A stretch of DNA of 64,000 nucleotides from a virus (Duplodnaviria; Caudoviricetes), in IMG/VR virus record IMGVR_UViG_2917791510_000001, positions 1 through 64,000 of that record; one strand, given 5' to 3'. Positions 16,449 through 24,291 of the stretch are shown one piece after another; the first letter of the stretch is position 1; every line of letters starts with the position of its first letter. Below the pieces are notes generated by a model. That model saw only the letters and a program-made list of their open reading frames with translations. It had not been told where the DNA came from and made no database searches. The translations under genes and the position numbers were made by a program.

Positions 16449-17036
16449 TCAGCCGCCGAACGGGTCCGGCGCCTCACCCCCGTCGCCCTGGGCGAGGAAG
16501 CCGGCCGCCTGCTCGCCGTTCGCCTCGGCCTTGGTGTACTTCGCGGCGAAGGTGTAGCTGAAGTACTTGCTGCCCGGCCGCTTGGTGTCCTGTCCGCGCT
16601 CGGCCCGGATGTAGCCGCCGATCTCCGGCGCCCGGACGCTCGCGTCGCGCAGGGCCTTGCCGACCGCCGCCGCCAGGGCTCCCTTGATGTACCAGGTGCG
16701 CACACCGTCGTCGTCGGGGAGCTGCTTCTCCACGTACCGGTTGGTCTCCCAGGTGATGCCGGTGGGCTCGCCCTGGGTCTCGATGATGAGCTGCTCCACC
16801 GGCTTGGCGGTGGCGGGGAACTTGAGCTTGGACTGCTCGACCCGCTCCTTGCCTTCCCAGAACAGCAGCTCGCCCGACTCCATGTCGGTCTGCTGACCCA
16901 TCCGGAAGGACAGGATGGTCCCTTCCACGACGGACCCGGGCGTCGGCCACTTCGCGGCGACGGTGCCACCGCCGAGGAAGTGGGCCGCCGCTGCGGCGTC
17001 GGCGCTGAAGGGGTCGGTCTGCGGTGCAGTGGTCAT
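16449..17036 (-). CDS. Putative single-stranded DNA-binding protein (OB-like)
   Basis: Beta-rich core, acidic tail ending DPFGG, next to the exonuclease. Confidence 0.6.
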   Translation of the reverse strand: MTTAPQTDPFSADAAAAAHFLGGGTVAAKWPTPGSVVEGTILSFRMGQQTDMESGELLFWEGKERVEQSKLKFPATAKPVEQLIIETQGEPTGITWETNRYVEKQLPDDDGVRTWYIKGALAAAVGKALRDASVRAPEIGGYIRAERGQDTKRPGSKYFSYTFAAKYTKAEANGEQAAGFLAQGDGGEAPDPFGG

Positions 17037-17113
17037 GCCTGTGTCCTGTCTTCTGTGATCCTGTGTGACCCGCCACCTGCGGTGGACGGGAAGGAGCCGG
17101 CTGTGCGTGGCTC

Positions 17114-17210
17114 CGGTGCGCGGACGGGACTCGAACCCATGTCTCTCGGCGCTGTCCGGCACGGGGGTGACCGGGACACCGAGGCTCTTGGCCAGTTGAG
17201 CTACCGCGCG
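17114..17210 (-). ncRNA. tRNA-like RNA with an extended hairpin replacing the anticodon loop
   Basis: Acceptor GCGCGG/CCGCGC, U8A9, D arm GCTC-AACTGGCCAA-GAGC, stem CTCGG/CCGAG enclosing 29 nt, T arm ATGGG-TTCGAGT-CCCGT; no encoded CCA. Confidence 0.7.
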
Positions 17211-17450
17211 ACCAGCGTTTTACGGCCGCCGCCAGACCACCCACCGACCGCCGGTGTGAGCGTTTCGCCAGAGGGCTACTTGCTGCACGACGGTGCGGTT
17301 TAGGTCTTCTAGGGCCCCGGGGCCGGGGGTTAGCCCCGGGGCGGTCTCTGTGGAGTTGTGACGCTTCGTCACCAATGCGTGTGTCGCCCGGAGTTGAAGC
17401 GTTCCGTGTGCTTTTATGATACCCCTGATCTTGGATTAATTAAACCCAGA

Positions 17451-20400
17451 TCAGCCGCCGGGTTCGGCGAGTTTCGCGAGCCTGGCCTGCATGAGCGCCA
17501 CCAGCTCGTCCACATCCGACTCGGGCAGGCCCTGCTTCGTGGCTTCCTTCCAGACGGCCGACGCCTCGCCCTTGGACGTCACCTGCTCCGCCCTGTCCTT
17601 GAGGGTCGGCGGACGGACCGTGGTCCGGGTGACGACGGCCGGTGCGGGACGCGACGGCGCGAACGTCTCCGCCGCCTCGGACACCATCACCGGCGAGGCG
17701 AGGTTGCGCACCTTTCGCCACTCCCTCACCCGCTCGCACAGCACAGCCGCGTTCCACCCGGACTCCAGGTCGATGCCGTACACCGCAGGCTGCTTCTTCC
17801 CCGACTTGTCCACCGGCAGGTGCACGACGATCCCTGCGTCCGTGCGGACCTTCGCACCGTTCAGCGGGTCCGGGTGCCACTTCTCCTCGTGGCGGTCCCA
17901 CACCCCGGCCGTGTTGATGCCCTGCGCGTAGAGCCCGATCTGGATAGCAATCTCCTGCCACCCGTAGTCGAGATCCTTACCGGTCTTCAGGTCGCCGACG
18001 ACGTACTCTCCGGGTTCCAGTCGGACTTCCGCCCGCCCGATCTTCAGCACGAGCGGCTTGGTCACCTTGTAGCAGTTGTCCGAGGTTCCTGCGATCCCGT
18101 ACTGCTTGACCACCGTCGTGAACTCGACCAGGTGCGGAACAGGCTCCAGGCCCAGCTCATCCAGCATCCGGATGTACGTCTCGATGTCCTCACGGCAGTC
18201 CGGCGGCACCTGGTCCATGACCGAGCGGGGACCACCGGGGGAGTGCCACGCCTTGTCCGCCAGCTCCTTGAAGCTGTGCATGGACGTGCCGAGGTTGGCG
18301 GCGACCTTGTCACCGGCCGCGTTCTTCAGGTCAGCCGTGAGTTCGTCCAGCAACTGCTTGTCTGCCTTGACGTGCTTGCCGTGCGCCCGCTGGACGATGT
18401 CCGGCCGGACCGTCGCGCCGAGCAACGCCATGCGCAGGCCCCACTGGGACAGGGCGTAGGTGTCGCTGATCGACTTGGCGAACGTCGTCGCCCGGGTCCA
18501 CGCCTGCTCCTCGCCGGTGTCCGGGTGCGGGATCAGGTACCGGCCGAAGCGGTCGCGCTTGGTCTCCTTCTCCCCGTGCGCGCCCGACCCGCCAGCGAGG
18601 AACTGCGCCGCTGCCGCGCTCTGGTCCGTCGGGCCCGGCTGGGCAGGCACCGCCGGACGGCTGCCACCGAGGAACGCCGCCGCTGCCGCGCTCTGGTCAG
18701 TCATCCCCGCAGCACTCCTGCCGTTCGTACCCGCCTTCGCCGTCGGCGCGGATGAGGTCGCCTTCGTCGATGGGCTCGCCGCAGGTGCATTCGCCGCCGT
18801 AGGACGCCTCGAACCAGGGGCCGGGGCCGTCGTTGCCGGCGCCGCCACCGCTGAGGAACCGGGCCGCCGCGTCGCTGTCCTGTCGTCCGTGCATTCCGTG
18901 GTCTCCTGTTCCTTGGCCTCCCGGTCGTGCACCCCGCAGTAGTCGCAGAACCGGCCGTTGTAGTCGTACTCGTGGCGGCAGTACGTGCGCTCCACCGTCT
19001 CGTGGTTGTCCGGCAGTACGCCCTCACGACCCTTCATCGGGCCCTCCACGACGACCGCGTGGACGTCGCCGCTGAGGGTGTTCGTGACGCGCATGACCGC
19101 GCCCCGCCGGACGAAGTGCTCACCCACCTCCAGTTCACCGAGGCGGACGAGGACGTCCGGCTTGCACTCGTGGCCTCCGTTGTCACAACTGAGAGAGCCC
19201 GCGTGCTGAGCCGGCTCGCAGACCCACAGCACGGCCTTGGCCTTGCCGTACAGGTCGAACGCTTCCACCAACGGCGTCACCGGGTGGCCGCACGTGCGGC
19301 AGTTGAGCCGCAGCGCGTCCAGGCCTCGGATCTCCTCCGACATCAGGGCCAGCCCTTCAGCCGGGGTGCGCCAACCGTCGTCGGCGTCCGGCCGTTCGTC
19401 TCCGGGATCCACGGTGCCGCAGAGCGCGCAGGTGAAAATCAGGCCCTCACCGTCGTCCTCGGGATCGTTCTCGGTGAAGCCGTCGGGGTGCGTGCACGGC
19501 GTCCCGCAGGCGACGCACACGAGCTGGTCGCCCTCCACGCCGAACACGGCGTCATCGTGGTAGCACGGCCGGCCGTCCTCGGTTTCACCCTTGGGCAGCC
19601 GGTTCGCCATCACCCGGCGGTCGCAGTCGGTGCAGGCCGTGGTGCCGTGGGGGACGGCCTCACCGCAACCGGGGCACCGGTGGTTGTCGGTGTTGCACTC
19701 CCCGCACTTCGGGTCGAACCCCTCGGGCAAGCCCTGGCGTAGCACCGTGCAGTCCGGTGCCGGGCAGGTCTCCGCCGGGCCGTTGTGGTCCCAGACAATG
19801 CCCGACGGGTCGGTGTACTGGTGGTTCAGCGCCGGGTCGAGCGGCAGACCCAGGGCGGCCGACGCGGTGCGGTCCATGCGGGCCGCCGTCTCCGCCTTCT
19901 CCTCCGGGCTCCGCTGCTCCAGCACCGCGATGGCCTCGCGGGTCAGCCGGGACGTCTCCGCGTCGTGGGCCTTCTGCTCGGGGGTGCGGTGGTCCTTGAA
20001 CACGGCCGGGTCGATGCGGTCCAGCACGGTTCCGGGGTTTCCGACCTCTCGCTGCATCAGCTCCGTGAACCGCGACGCCTGCGGCCGGTCATCGTCGGAC
20101 GGGGCGCCGTCGACCATCCGCTCCGCGTCGGCGAACTCCTGCATCCGGCTGCCGTACGGCCAGGCGACGTGTTGCTGATGCTCGGTGCACCACAGCTTGG
20201 CCGGGGACGGCTTGGCCATGAAGACCGGGCACTCTGTCCCGTCCTCATGCTTCCAACCGCCCTTCCAGCCCTCCAGCGGCTGCTCGTCGCCTGCGGCCTT
20301 GAGCTGGTCGGCCATCGTCGGCGCAGCCGCCACGGCAGCCGTGTTCGTCCCGGTGCGTGTGATGGTCTCGACCGGCTCGGACCTCGGCTCGGTGCCGTCC

Positions 20401-20864
20401 CCGTCGCCGACCAGTTCGGCCGAGACGGCCACCCCGGCGCAGTCGTAGCAGGCGCCGATCTCGCGGTGCTCACAGTCGAACGCGAGCGTCGCGACGAGCC
20501 CGTCCGTCGTACCGGCGATGTCCGGGTACACCCCGAGCGGGAAGTCGCTTCCGGCGGGGCACGGCCGGGGCGTCTGCTCGGGAGTCAGGTGGCTGCGCAC
20601 CCGGCCGTTGCCGTAGAGCTGCACCGGGTGCCTGCACAGGCGGCACTGCGGGCCATCTGCGGTCATGTCCTCGGCGAGTGCGACACCCGCCGGGGTGACC
20701 GGGGGCCGGCCAACGCCCTTGCACTTGCGGTTGTCCGGGTCGGCCGGGTCGGCCTGAAAGTCGGGGTTGTCGGTGAAGTGGGACCGCATTCCGCCGGCGG
20801 CGGTGACGGTGTACTCCTCGCCGCACGTCCCGCACGGCTTGCGCTCAGGGGATGACTGAGTCAT
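17451..20864 (-). CDS. Long ORF: multi-CxxC N-terminal region in frame with a C-terminal PD-(D/E)XK (RecB/Cas4-like) exonuclease; the exonuclease may start separately at 18704
   Basis: RDRFGRY, TRATTFAK, GTSMH, IAGTSD, VGDLKTG, QIGLYA; many CxxC pairs upstream. Confidence 0.75.
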   Translation of the reverse strand: MTQSSPERKPCGTCGEEYTVTAAGGMRSHFTDNPDFQADPADPDNRKCKGVGRPPVTPAGVALAEDMTADGPQCRLCRHPVQLYGNGRVRSHLTPEQTPRPCPAGSDFPLGVYPDIAGTTDGLVATLAFDCEHREIGACYDCAGVAVSAELVGDGDGTEPRSEPVETITRTGTNTAAVAAAPTMADQLKAAGDEQPLEGWKGGWKHEDGTECPVFMAKPSPAKLWCTEHQQHVAWPYGSRMQEFADAERMVDGAPSDDDRPQASRFTELMQREVGNPGTVLDRIDPAVFKDHRTPEQKAHDAETSRLTREAIAVLEQRSPEEKAETAARMDRTASAALGLPLDPALNHQYTDPSGIVWDHNGPAETCPAPDCTVLRQGLPEGFDPKCGECNTDNHRCPGCGEAVPHGTTACTDCDRRVMANRLPKGETEDGRPCYHDDAVFGVEGDQLVCVACGTPCTHPDGFTENDPEDDGEGLIFTCALCGTVDPGDERPDADDGWRTPAEGLALMSEEIRGLDALRLNCRTCGHPVTPLVEAFDLYGKAKAVLWVCEPAQHAGSLSCDNGGHECKPDVLVRLGELEVGEHFVRRGAVMRVTNTLSGDVHAVVVEGPMKGREGVLPDNHETVERTYCRHEYDYNGRFCDYCGVHDREAKEQETTECTDDRTATRRPGSSAVAAPATTAPAPGSRRPTAANAPAASPSTKATSSAPTAKAGTNGRSAAGMTDQSAAAAAFLGGSRPAVPAQPGPTDQSAAAAQFLAGGSGAHGEKETKRDRFGRYLIPHPDTGEEQAWTRATTFAKSISDTYALSQWGLRMALLGATVRPDIVQRAHGKHVKADKQLLDELTADLKNAAGDKVAANLGTSMHSFKELADKAWHSPGGPRSVMDQVPPDCREDIETYIRMLDELGLEPVPHLVEFTTVVKQYGIAGTSDNCYKVTKPLVLKIGRAEVRLEPGEYVVGDLKTGKDLDYGWQEIAIQIGLYAQGINTAGVWDRHEEKWHPDPLNGAKVRTDAGIVVHLPVDKSGKKQPAVYGIDLESGWNAAVLCERVREWRKVRNLASPVMVSEAAETFAPSRPAPAVVTRTTVRPPTLKDRAEQVTSKGEASAVWKEATKQGLPESDVDELVALMQARLAKLAEPGG
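18697..18894 (-). CDS. Small Zn-binding protein overprinted within the long ORF
   Basis: Own GCCAAGGAA plus AGGAG SD; GC3-rich codons; WFEASYGGECTCGEPIDEGD; its stop overlaps ATG 18704. Confidence 0.65.
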   Translation of the reverse strand: MHGRQDSDAAARFLSGGGAGNDGPGPWFEASYGGECTCGEPIDEGDLIRADGEGGYERQECCGDD

Positions 20865-21621: not shown

Positions 21622-24291
21622 CTAGGACCGGGGAACGAAACGGTCCAGCTTGCGCGAAGCGATGGTGACCGCGAACAGGTCCGAGGCGAGGCCCGCGCGG
21701 ATCCCCTCGGGCACCTCCTTGCCCGCGTACCGCAGCAGGCCGACCAGCTTCGTGGACGCAGGCTTCTTCCGCCAGGACGCCGACTTGGTCATGTTCAGGC
21801 TCGAGCGGTCCGAGGCCTCCGTCTCCGCCCACGCCATCGCCATGCCGAGGTCCAGGCCCTCGTGCAGCCGCTCCCACGTCCCGCGCGGCGGCGCATAAGC
21901 CACGTCCCACTTCTCCTCGCCGCCCTTGGACGGCCAGATCACGATCTCGCCGCTGTCACCCAGCGGGATGAACTGGACGCCCGCGTTGGTCCGCAGCCAC
22001 GAGTACGCGGCCGACGCCTTGAAGAGATCGATGTCCCGGTGCTTCAGCTCGAACCGCAGCGAGCCGGCCGGGACCTTGGACTCCTTCCGGGATTCCTCGC
22101 GCTCGTACGCCTCGGCCAGCGTCTCGCCGTCCTCCACCACCTTGCCTTCGAGACCGGGCTCCAGGTCGACCAGCGTGCACAGCGATCCGCCCTCGCCGGC
22201 GAGGATGAGCACCAACGCGTCGCTCTTGCCGGTGGCGGGGGAGGGGCGCAGCACGCGGCCGACCATCTGGATAAAGAGCGGTTGGGACTTCGTCGGACGG
22301 GCGATCACCGCGCAGTCGCTGTGGGGGAAATCCGCACCCTCGGTCAGCACCATGCAGTTGACCAGGGTTCGGACCTCGCCCGTCCTGAACTTCCGGTAGA
22401 TGTTCAGCCGTTCTTCGCGAGGCGTCCCGCCGTGTACGTACGCCGCGTCCGGCAGGGCCTCGGCCGTGGCCCGCGCGACCTCCACCGTCGGCGTGAAGAC
22501 GATGGGGCTACGCCGGTCGGCCGCATGCTCCTCCAGAACCTTGTGGATGATCTGCGGGCCGCCCGCCTCCATCATCGCGTCGCCGAGGTCCTTGGCCTGG
22601 TAGTCGCCCTTCGAGCGCTTGACGTCGCCGAGGTGCAGGGTGTCCACGTCAATGATCTTGGACTTCACGTCGACCAGGTGGCCCCGGGACATCATCCACA
22701 GTGGGGAGCGGGTATAAACCGCGTCCTCCCAGACATCCCCGAGTCCCTGGCCGTCGCCCCGGGCGAGCGTTGCGGTGAAACCGGCGGCTCGCGTCGGGTC
22801 GTCCTCGCCCTCGGCGACGTCCATGCCGCTGTAGCAGCCGAGTCCCGCCAGGATGCTGACGTAACTTTTGGCACTTGCGTGATGACATTCGTCGACGATC
22901 ACCAGGCCGACCTTGCCGCACGTCTTCTGCGAGTCCAGCAGGCGGTTGAACCGGGTCTCCCGGGCCAGGGTCTGCACCGAGCAGACCATGACGTCGGCGG
23001 CTATGTTGTCGTCTGCCGCCTTCACCTTGCCGATGAACAGGCCCGGCTCCGTCTGCTTCAACTTGCTCAGCGTCTGGTCGGCCAACTCGTCGCGGTGCAC
23101 GAGGATGACCACGCGGGTGCCGTGCTCCGCAATGTGCTCAGCCGCCATGCGGGAGAACACGACCGTGTTGTGCGTGACAATGTGGTGCCGCGTCACTTGG
23201 TACAGGCTGTCCGGTGCGGCCACCCGGATGCACCGGATCTCCTGGTCCTCCACGCGCTCCACGGCCACGATGGTGCGCCGGGGTTCGAACGTACGACGGG
23301 GTCCGTTGGTGCGGGTCTTCCTCGGTGTGGAGATGGCCGGAACGTCCGACGGCATGAGGATGCGCACCGTCAGGCTCTCGTACGCCTTGCCGTTGGACGG
23401 CTGGACCCGTTCCGATGACCCTACTGTGGCCGTGCCGCCGAGGGAGCACACCAGCTCCCGGACGTCCTCGGCCAGTTGCGGAGAGGTGGTGTGGTAGAGC
23501 ACCGACCGACGTTCGTCCCGGGATGAGCCGTCGTTGTCCATGAGGCCCTGCAACAGCGCGACGCGTTGCGCCGTACCGGCCTCCAGGTACCGACGCGGGA
23601 TGAACTTGTCCGCGCTGACCACGCCCAGACCCATCGAGCGGATGTGACGCTGAATGCCTCGGACGACGAACCGGGGGCAGTACCGCGTCTCGTCCACGTG
23701 CGCCCGGGTCACCTCGTGCTCGGTGCTGACCCGCTCGGCCACGTGCTCGTCGGGCGTGGTCAGCATCGGGCTGGTGTGGGCCAGGTAGCCATTGGCGATC
23801 AGTGACCCCAGTGTGTACGGGCCCACGGGAAGGTCCACGTCGGGCGTAACGGTGCCGGACACCGGGACGGCCCACCGGTTGCTCCGTTCGTACCGCAGGC
23901 CGAGACTGGCGATGTCCGCCGTGCTGAGCGTGCGGACCTCCTTGGACGTGCGCCGGTGCGCGTAGTCCCGGACAGTCCACAGGTGCTCGGCATCCGTGAT
24001 GACGGAGGATCCGTCGCTGAAGGTCACGCGGAACGCGGGCAGGACGCCACGGTCGTAGACGTCCGTGACCTCCGTGGGGCAGCCGTTGCTACCGAAGACG
24101 AGGTCTCCCGGCTGGAGGTCACCCCACTTGCGCAGGCCGTCCGGTGTGGGGATCTCGGTGTCCAGCGGGTGGCCTTTGCCGGCGCCGGTCGGGAGCACAA
24201 CGGCCGGCCGCTGCATGCCCTCGGCCCACGCGGCCTGTACGGCGTCGATGGCCTCGCGCTGGTACTCGCGGAGGGTCAATGTCTGGCTCAC
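21622..24291 (-). CDS. SF2 DEAD/DEAH helicase containing an intein
   Basis: LREYQ Q-motif, GAGK/T split by the intein, IVDECHH, GFTAT, LTEGAD, QMVGRVLR. Confidence 0.92.
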   Translation of the reverse strand: MSQTLTLREYQREAIDAVQAAWAEGMQRPAVVLPTGAGKGHPLDTEIPTPDGLRKWGDLQPGDLVFGSNGCPTEVTDVYDRGVLPAFRVTFSDGSSVITDAEHLWTVRDYAHRRTSKEVRTLSTADIASLGLRYERSNRWAVPVSGTVTPDVDLPVGPYTLGSLIANGYLAHTSPMLTTPDEHVAERVSTEHEVTRAHVDETRYCPRFVVRGIQRHIRSMGLGVVSADKFIPRRYLEAGTAQRVALLQGLMDNDGSSRDERRSVLYHTTSPQLAEDVRELVCSLGGTATVGSSERVQPSNGKAYESLTVRILMPSDVPAISTPRKTRTNGPRRTFEPRRTIVAVERVEDQEIRCIRVAAPDSLYQVTRHHIVTHNTVVFSRMAAEHIAEHGTRVVILVHRDELADQTLSKLKQTEPGLFIGKVKAADDNIAADVMVCSVQTLARETRFNRLLDSQKTCGKVGLVIVDECHHASAKSYVSILAGLGCYSGMDVAEGEDDPTRAAGFTATLARGDGQGLGDVWEDAVYTRSPLWMMSRGHLVDVKSKIIDVDTLHLGDVKRSKGDYQAKDLGDAMMEAGGPQIIHKVLEEHAADRRSPIVFTPTVEVARATAEALPDAAYVHGGTPREERLNIYRKFRTGEVRTLVNCMVLTEGADFPHSDCAVIARPTKSQPLFIQMVGRVLRPSPATGKSDALVLILAGEGGSLCTLVDLEPGLEGKVVEDGETLAEAYEREESRKESKVPAGSLRFELKHRDIDLFKASAAYSWLRTNAGVQFIPLGDSGEIVIWPSKGGEEKWDVAYAPPRGTWERLHEGLDLGMAMAWAETEASDRSSLNMTKSASWRKKPASTKLVGLLRYAGKEVPEGIRAGLASDLFAVTIASRKLDRFVPRS
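23167..24174 (-). mobile_element. Class 3 intein (336 aa) with LAGLIDADG homing endonuclease, inserted in Walker A
   Basis: Starts GHPLDTEIPTP, block B EHLW, block F RCIRV, block G IVTHN/T; LLQGLMDNDG. Confidence 0.88.

Follow-up and report, generated by a model that had tools for sequence, protein, structure and literature searches.

A conserved tRNA-shaped RNA without a decoding loop in the leader of an OB-fold-like gene on a Streptomyces phage-plasmid

The stretch of DNA analysed here, referred to as the window, comprises the 64,000 nucleotides (nt) of positions 1 to 64,000 of the viral record IMGVR_UViG_2917791510_000001. It is the first 64 kb of one 98,815-bp replicon with a G+C content of 69%, the plasmid pS1D4-14.2 of Streptomyces sp. 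S1D4-14 (NZ_CP041606.1), on which tailed-phage functions such as the portal and the major head protein are also encoded. From position 1 to about 26 kb the minus strand carries the genes. In this part of the replicon, 414 nt without coding function separate the stop of a gene for a protein of 1137 amino acids (aa) at 17451 from the ATG of a gene for a 195-aa protein at 17036, and this leader contains a tRNA-shaped RNA module, which lies 79 nt upstream of the ATG in the same orientation as the gene. A previous inspection of the letters alone, called here the sequence-only reading, had described a leader of about 400 nt with a tRNA mimic lacking an anticodon loop, and the length of the leader is borne out by the gene boundaries.

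Fold of the element

The module and its parts are as follows.

17116-17210, minus strand: the complete tRNA-shaped module, from C1 (17210) to C73 (17116), recognised by ARAGORN, the Rfam tRNA model (37 bits), the cloverleaf of the minimum-free-energy (MFE) fold, our own covariance model (87.7 bits) and covariation.
17204-17210, minus strand: 5' strand of the acceptor helix, C1 to G7; C1 stands opposite A72 as a mismatch, and positions 2-7 are 100% identical in 12 close relatives.
17184-17201, minus strand: D arm with a 4-bp stem and a 10-nt loop containing G18 G19, based on the Rfam alignment and the MFE fold.
17145-17183, minus strand: extended arm of 39 nt in place of the anticodon arm, based on the MFE fold, covariation of the lower stem and an inner helix kept in the relatives with the same type of arm (W-type).
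17124-17140, minus strand: T arm with a 5-bp stem and a UUCGAGU loop, based on the Rfam alignment and the MFE fold; four of the five pairs change on both sides and 100% of the alignment cells pair.
17116-17123, minus strand: 3' strand of the acceptor helix (17123-17118) followed by A72 (17117) and C73 (17116), 98% identical among the close relatives.

ARAGORN detected one tRNA-like gene in the window, 96 nt long at 17115-17210, which it called tRNA-Arg(ccg). A local scan with the Rfam tRNA model RF00005 yielded 37 bits (gathering score 29) at 17116-17210, with all 71 model positions aligned and an insert of 27 nt within the anticodon loop; the list of the whole-window Rfam run at the gathering threshold does not include the element. 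The MFE fold (-43.9 kcal/mol, z = -2.15) is a cloverleaf with an extended anticodon arm, and the nucleotides that build the elbow of a tRNA are kept, namely U8, A14, G18 G19 and the UUCRA of the T loop. The acceptor helix comprises six base pairs and the C1.A72 mismatch. The extended arm starts with an 8-bp lower stem, which a 1x3 internal loop separates from a CCGG/CCGG helix; beyond it, a bulged U leads to the 3-bp apical helix, and CCCC forms the loop at the tip (17163-17166). No CCA is encoded after C73 (the sequence continues A72 C73 C G G). Since the tRNA genes of the Streptomyces host likewise lack an encoded CCA, its absence does not decide whether the RNA receives a CCA end and is aminoacylated.

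The sequence-only reading had correctly described the acceptor stem, the D arm and the T arm as tRNA-like and had recognised the C1:A72 mismatch, the CCCC loop and the missing CCA, leaving unstated that all of this lies on the minus strand. Some details of the arm have to be revised. The 5-bp anticodon stem encloses 27 nt and not 29, the copy in the window does possess U33 (its loop starts G32 U33 C C C G), which is missing in the homologues, and instead of the 5-bp pairing suggested for the insert the comparative data favour the 8-bp lower stem with the CCGG/CCGG helix.

Relatives, covariation and the acceptor end

Searches of viral, metagenome and genome collections, for which the 195-aa protein and an alignment of its relatives served as queries, resulted in more than 70 loci, including contigs of 92-96 kb in three Streptomyces assemblies. 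A covariance model built from five close copies gave 25 matches at E < 1. On related viral, metagenomic and Streptomyces contigs, 23 of these precede a homologue of the 195-aa gene and share its strand, 22 of them credible and one (L028:1923) dubious; the remaining two are the second tRNA-like RNA of the genome, described below, and a match on an unrelated contig. The distance to the gene varies from 40 to 235 nt, the element always being upstream and co-oriented. Neither megablast and blastn of the region nor tblastn of the 195-aa protein found a match among GenBank phages, and in a plasmid collection the window's own record was the sole match. An exact-pattern scan of viral contigs hit two unrelated low-GC contigs only (L003 and L004). 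The former, with 49.6% G+C, encodes a tRNA-like RNA at 2179-2253 on its minus strand that agrees with the element in the acceptor 3' strand and the T arm and has an arm closed by a GGGA tetraloop; a 79-nt tRNA-Met adjoins it.

The fold is kept across the family with compensatory changes, so that the check for covariation among homologues proposed in the sequence-only reading came out in its favour. Standard pairs occupy 95.7% of the cells as opposed to 74% in shuffled alignments and 30-46% when the pairing partners are slid, 25 of the 30 pairs change on both sides, and none of 500 shuffles reached the observed value on any of five measures, these counts being taken from a model-fitted alignment, which makes them lean to the model. 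In this alignment, all eight pairs of the lower stem of the arm (helix 3) change on both sides. Compensatory changes are also plain in the raw sequences: the lower stem has three different sequences in the window copy, L005 and L010, all of which pair; G10:C25 of the D stem becomes A10:U25 in L005, and an A-U pair of the T stem is replaced by C-G among the relatives. The helices contain 23 G.U cells, which on the opposite strand are A.C mismatches.

Conservation is distributed unevenly over the module. In the 12 close members, identity is 98-100% in the acceptor strands, 86% in the T arm, 73% in the D arm and 45% in the anticodon arm; for the neighbouring 195-aa protein the amino-acid identity is 60%, and the third codon positions of its gene are 65% identical. 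The arm occurs in at least four designs, which range in size from 4 bp with a triloop to about 15 bp. The window copy shares a long and interrupted arm (W-type) with seven relatives. In L011 a plain 9-bp stem ends in an 8-nt loop, in L012 an 8-bp stem in a 14-nt loop and in L015 a 4-bp stem in a triloop. At the place of the anticodon the homologues have either a long arm or a loop, 3 to 14 nt in size, and the length of the whole element is 65, 82, 87, 93-96 or 110 nt. Position 33 is A or C in the close homologues, and U33 together with a Gly anticodon occurs in the window copy only. Despite the four arm designs, a CCC or CCCC run recurs in the apical loop, namely in 11 of the 12 close relatives. 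In L018:2302-2411 (the same as L074) and L031:2252-2361, an extra hairpin is inserted into the D loop in addition to the rebuilt anticodon arm. A canonical decoding tRNA is therefore rejected: the cloverleaf is present, but there is no conserved 7-nt loop, U33 or anticodon and no Watson-Crick pair at 1:72. The proposal of a non-decoding tRNA mimic holds, with a conserved upper body, a freely rebuilt anticodon arm and neither a conserved anticodon nor a conserved U33. A tmRNA was also considered, and the ARAGORN tmRNA search found none in the genome.

The acceptor end is unusual as well. Of the 25 model matches, 19 have C (15) or A (4) at position 1, opposite an invariant A72 that is followed by C73, and all 19 members without an anticodon carry this combination. 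It is kept in distant members with a different acceptor sequence (L031, L021, L024, L028 and two copies in L006). In contrast, the three members upstream of the gene with a loop of 7-8 nt (L006:1423, L022 and L034) pair position 1 normally with 72 and carry A or G at position 73, so that the loss of the decoding loop goes together with the odd acceptor end. The last of these, L034:2385-2462, occupies the same position in a more distant phage and is a normal-looking tRNA with a 7-nt loop and the anticodon UAA, which reads the UUA codon, rare in Streptomyces; its variable loop is short, unlike that of bacterial tRNA-Leu.

An unpaired 1:72 position is the hallmark of initiator tRNA and blocks binding of EF-Tu. 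The element and the Streptomyces initiator tRNA gene have the unpaired C1 and the pairs G2:C71, C3:G70 and G4:C69 in common, and nothing else. The element differs from initiator tRNA (fMet) in having no CAU, U.G at 31:39, C11:G24, other D and T arms and C73 instead of A73. As it also lacks an anticodon loop and the run of three G:C pairs at 29-31:39-41, membership in the initiator tRNAs was rejected. In bacteria, C73 serves as an identity element for tRNA-His only, jointly with G-1 (PMC9976931), and position -1 in the close clade is A, U or C. The acceptor end may have evolved so that the mimic is neither charged by a synthetase nor carried to the ribosome; alternatively, a specific partner may read it.

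The structured leader and its surroundings

The features around the module are given below.

17093-17114, minus strand: invariant GC-rich hairpin with a 6-bp stem and a 10-nt loop, beginning 1 nt after C73 (RNAalifold columns 465-470:481-486).
17211-17255, minus strand: conserved 5' flank, consisting of a near-invariant 28-nt block abutting C1 and a G-rich block at -45 to -20, from the alignment.
17256-17450, minus strand: remainder of the structured leader with a GC hairpin at about 17313-17343, an AGACC/GGUCU helix and a TATCAT block at about 17395-17425, from the alignment and RNAalifold.
17451-20864, minus strand: gene for the 1137-aa protein upstream of the element, with a C-terminal exonuclease domain (phrog_466, exonuclease, 1.3e-62).
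16449-17036, minus strand: gene for the 195-aa OB-fold-like protein (phrog_1911, PHROG match 1.7e-20), downstream and the constant neighbour of the element.

Across 11 relatives, conservation extends over all 414 nt of the leader, with a mean column identity of 70% and many invariant blocks, and RNAalifold predicts several helices across it. The hairpin at 17093-17114 is invariant in 11 of 11 sequences, which makes covariation impossible, and the AGACC/GGUCU helix does covary, with pair 249:326 being A-U in eight sequences and C-G in three. This helix encloses about 70 nt in a domain upstream of the module (17256-17345), which also includes the GC hairpin with compensatory changes and has no match in Rfam. 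At the far end of the leader, where the sequence-only reading had placed an operator (17432), a palindrome at 17426-17454 surrounds a conserved AT-rich centre (TTTAAYTAA) and overlaps the stop codon of the 1137-aa gene. From relative to relative the arms vary in sequence yet remain complementary, and the near-invariant TATCAT block follows. The palindrome is thus confirmed, and an operator is one of its possible roles: palindrome and block together could be an operator plus a promoter, or the palindrome could be a hairpin. No sigma-70 consensus promoter was found in 16900-17600.

For the 195-aa protein, 230 homologues were found. Its AlphaFold model (pLDDT 84) gave weak OB-fold-like matches to PRD1 SSB, RPA and gp32 (Z <= 5.2, VIA-align), and Foldseek returned nothing for the model at E <= 0.001. 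The earlier label "ssb-like" is thus plausible for the predicted structure, the OB-fold-like matches being present and weak. Two further observations concern the annotation of this region. The gene for an 889-aa DEAD/DEAH helicase (21622-24291) contains a LAGLIDADG-type match at residues 242-293 and PHROG matches resembling terminase inteins, and probably carries an intein. In RefSeq, the locus tags of NZ_CP041606.1 across the element (16449-17451) run from FNV66_RS00745 to RS00755 with one tag skipped, so that a feature missing from the PLSDB table, probably an RNA gene and most likely a tRNA, may be annotated at the element.

Each genome has a single copy of the G-rich block, which lies 20-45 nt upstream of the element and is complementary to the arm. 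In all 11 sequences, the energy of the arm-block duplex ranks among the top 0-5% of windows. Measured against composition-preserving shuffles, the pairing stands out in L011 with 8 Watson-Crick pairs (p = 0.003), in L018 with 10 (p = 0.001) and in L014, where the 11 pairs include G.U (p = 0.014). However, in the window copy (p about 0.4-0.5) and six relatives it is not above composition-matched shuffles (p = 0.2-0.98 overall), the arms pair with foreign blocks about as well as with their own, and the block is also predicted to pair inside the upstream domain. As the window copy does not exceed composition-matched chance, the pairing was dropped as a general rule and is kept as a lead only.

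A second tRNA-shaped RNA is encoded in the same genome outside the window, at 89342-89438 on the minus strand (L008:1501-1597). It is 97 nt long, scores 42.2 bits with the Rfam tRNA model and has a normal G1:C72 pair and A73, and a 7-bp helix with a 17-nt loop replaces its anticodon loop. This loop is antisense to GACCAAGGA, a motif with about 35 copies per genome in five related genomes. For the arm of the element at 17116-17210, no over-represented complementary k-mers were found in the five related genomes, while the positive-control motif stood out.

Possible functions and related RNAs

The upper half of a tRNA is the part recognised by RNase P, RNase Z and the CCA-adding enzyme. In the element, selection acts on this half (acceptor strands and T arm in comparison with the arm), the anticodon side is free to vary, place and orientation before one gene are fixed, and structured RNA is found on both sides. 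This leads us to favour, at slightly less than even confidence, the view that the element serves RNase P and RNase Z as a processing module within a leader that is itself conserved and structured. It retains the L-shaped upper body of a tRNA with the acceptor helix, the D/T elbow and the T arm, and a hairpin replaces the decoding arm, so that no codon would be read. The module would be transcribed together with the leader of the OB-fold (SSB-like) gene and would act as a substrate mimic for the tRNA end-processing enzymes of the host. A cut by RNase P on the 5' side would detach the structured upstream leader of about 200 nt, and RNase Z or exonucleases acting after C73 would place the mRNA start at the invariant GC hairpin or shortly ahead of it; the module itself may be set free as a stable tRNA-shaped side product. 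What is observed directly is the conserved fold, the loss of decoding features, the synteny and the co-orientation; we infer that the module is transcribed, that it is cut at these sites and that its acceptor end prevents charging. Among the functions suggested by the sequence-only reading, which were an RNase P/Z processing signal, a decoy for tRNA-targeting defences and a structural RNA for the neighbouring nuclease, the first appears to fit best in view of the co-orientation, the position and the structured leader, the second is a possibility that none of the tests supports, and the last finds no evidence in its favour, the constant partner being the downstream OB-fold-like gene and not the nuclease.

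Several points speak against processing as the full explanation. RNase P and RNase Z need only the acceptor-T minihelix and do not read its sequence, so the near-invariance of the acceptor and both flanks and the intact D arm exceed the needs of a cutting signal and hint at a further partner. The element is absent from some relatives (L016, L020, L023, L025-L027 and L029) and is therefore dispensable for expressing the 195-aa gene, and, as stated above, the covariation counts lean to the model. Moreover, in the distant relative L006 (1423-1818), whose neighbouring protein is 41% identical, three different tRNA-like RNAs lie in tandem upstream of the same gene, one with an 8-nt loop, one class-II-like with a GAAA tetraloop closing the anticodon stem and one with a 45-nt insert; such an array looks more like a set of RNA products than like punctuation. 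The invariant acceptor and flanks, the D arm and the tandem array are the reasons why a trans-acting mimic and a cis-regulatory fold remain rivals.

A mimic acting in trans, which we consider possible although on the unlikely side, would accumulate as a released RNA and occupy a protein of the host or the phage with affinity for the upper body or the acceptor end of tRNAs, as a decoy or scaffold; candidate partners are a tRNA-modifying or tRNA-inactivating defence toxin and an initiator-tRNA-specific factor. It would account for an acceptor helix that is invariant at the sequence level with an intact elbow, for the family-wide 1:72 mismatch with C73, for the first four acceptor positions matching the host initiator tRNA and for the trio in L006, and the phages T4 and T5 do make stable tRNA-like RNAs of unknown role. 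However, a decoy would not need strict linkage to one gene or co-orientation, without an anticodon loop it cannot bait anticodon nucleases, and the D and T arms are unlike those of initiator tRNA, with the CAU anticodon and the G:C pair at 31:39 missing. Somewhat less probable is a fold that regulates in cis, in which the module is one domain of a larger leader riboregulator, either as an operator for autogenous control by the OB-fold protein, for which T4 gene 32 and the ThrRS leader are parallels, or as a switch between the arm and the G-rich block. The conservation of the entire leader with its covarying helices, the same gene always adjoining the element and the arm-block complementarity in L011, L018 and L014, with its duplex energies in 11 of 11 sequences, are consistent with this, and the shuffle controls for the window copy and six relatives, the similar pairing with foreign blocks and the competing pairing of the block in the upstream domain argue against it. 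A more specific version, for which we see a small chance, takes about 300 nt of the leader as a riboregulator with a tRNA-shaped sensor or effector domain, where the apex of the arm would dock on a G-rich bulge 20-45 nt upstream and so gate the RNase P cut and the amount of SSB-like protein; it is suggested by the 8-10 perfect pairs in two independently redesigned arms. If true, the riboregulator would be a tRNA-scaffolded RNA switch whose acceptor end evolved to be invisible to synthetases and EF-Tu. Less probable again is a tRNA-scaffolded antisense RNA, which would base-pair through the C-rich loop at its apex with G-rich sites in mRNAs of the phage or the host. The second tRNA-shaped RNA, with its loop antisense to the GACCAAGGAA leader motif, is a parallel, and this element and its target motif with about 35 copies per genome do exist; the apical C run shared by 11 of the 12 close relatives across four arm designs fits in too. 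Against it stand the lack of an enriched complementary k-mer in the five related genomes and the shortness of four to five C's, which are not specific enough at 69% G+C.

Readings without a functional non-decoding RNA fare worse. A decaying tRNA pseudogene, or a site at the DNA level such as attP or an origin without RNA function, is very improbable: some relatives do lack the element, it is located within the replication gene cluster, and RNA-based prophage origins exist in mycobacteriophages (PMC7157519), but compensatory changes keep all four helices, the 23 G.U cells would be A.C on the other strand, the acceptor is more conserved than coding DNA, and arm lengths that are not multiples of three show that the sequence is not coding. 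The pseudogene is thus countered by covariation and sequence conservation, and a small open reading frame across the element was dismissed because the arm lengths differ by non-multiples of three. An attP or tRNA-derived integration site was rejected, since nothing in three host genomes matched better than 25 nt of a tRNA-Lys gene and attB-type identity was not found there. We give hardly any credence to a tRNA-Gly(CCC) with a 20-nt intron at position 37/38 that is spliced to a decoding tRNA, although ARAGORN draws it in intron mode and the 4-bp helix with the 3-nt bulge in the window copy resembles half a bulge-helix-bulge motif, the archaeal splice type. To our knowledge, bacteria do not splice such tRNA introns. 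The close homologues have no U33 or Gly anticodon, and their arms have other lengths and shapes; the bulge-helix-bulge at 37/38 is not kept in L005, L010, L011, L012, L013 and L015. Genes for a tRNA-splicing endonuclease (PF01974) and an RtcB ligase (PF01139) are absent from the 98.8-kb genome, the PF01974 controls being positive in archaea only. Bacterial tRNA-Gly has U73 and G1:C72 (PMC9976931), which the 1:72 mismatch and C73 do not fit. The spliced tRNA was therefore rejected, with no shared anticodon, differing arms and no splicing endonuclease or RtcB. The sequence-only reading had named the loss of the extended arm in homologues and a splicing of the insert as outcomes that speak against a mimic; the homologues keep an extended arm, and splicing finds no support in the genome or in a conserved bulge-helix-bulge.

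Non-decoding look-alikes of tRNA are already known. The T4 RNAs C and D and the small stable tRNA-like RNAs of T5 are phage-encoded, do not decode and lie in tRNA gene clusters of lytic phages. The element resembles them as a tRNA-shaped phage RNA that does not decode, and differs in standing alone in an mRNA leader of a genome without a canonical tRNA. The mascRNA, or MALAT1 and MEN-beta elements (RF01684), are tRNA-like modules of eukaryotic nuclear RNAs which are cut by RNase P and RNase Z. As there, the module here sits at the junction of a long structured RNA, where cutting would define the end of the neighbour and release a small RNA; homology and an Rfam match to this family are lacking. 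The t-elements of plant mitochondria are non-decoding tRNA-like structures that mark the 5' and 3' ends of mRNAs (Forner et al., 2007, PMC1920247). Both they and the phage element, if it is transcribed as proposed, have a tRNA-like fold beside an mRNA within the transcript and are proposed cis-signals for RNase P and RNase Z. In contrast to t-elements, the phage element, known here from its sequence, belongs to a bacterial replicon and is far better conserved, with a full elbow, an invariant acceptor and the 1:72 mismatch with C73. The tRNA-like domains of YrlA are substrates of RNase P, and CCA is added to them (Chen et al., 2014, PMC4201824). The Y RNAs YrlA and Yrn1 (RF02553), YrlA also occurring in actinobacterial phages, and the element are all non-coding mimics of the upper body of tRNA. 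However, a Y RNA has its ends in the Ro-binding stem and a closed acceptor-like helix, whereas in the phage element the acceptor is open and the anticodon side closed. The identity as a Y RNA was rejected, as no gene for Ro60 (TROVE, PF05731) was matched in the genome and the RF02553 model had no match at 17116-17210, its only match (12.6 bits, E = 0.7) being at the other tRNA-like locus. Beyond the generic tRNA model, Rfam 15 contains no family for the element, and a literature search found no description of its family.

The analysis adds the acceptor-end signature that is tied to the loss of the decoding loop, the quantified contrast in conservation between the upper body and the arm, the negative tests for splicing and for antisense targets, and the lead of an arm-to-leader complementarity. 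The "tRNA genes" that ARAGORN and Rfam report in phages are usually taken as helpers in codon usage, and some of them are conserved non-decoding look-alikes. With more than 20 members, four arm designs and a diagnostic acceptor end, the family is a usable system for studying the function of phage tRNA mimics, and in the Streptomyces host RNase P and RNase Z assays as well as phage-plasmid genetics are feasible. If the element is indeed processed by RNase P and RNase Z, the organellar principle of "tRNA punctuation" would extend to bacterial mobile elements.

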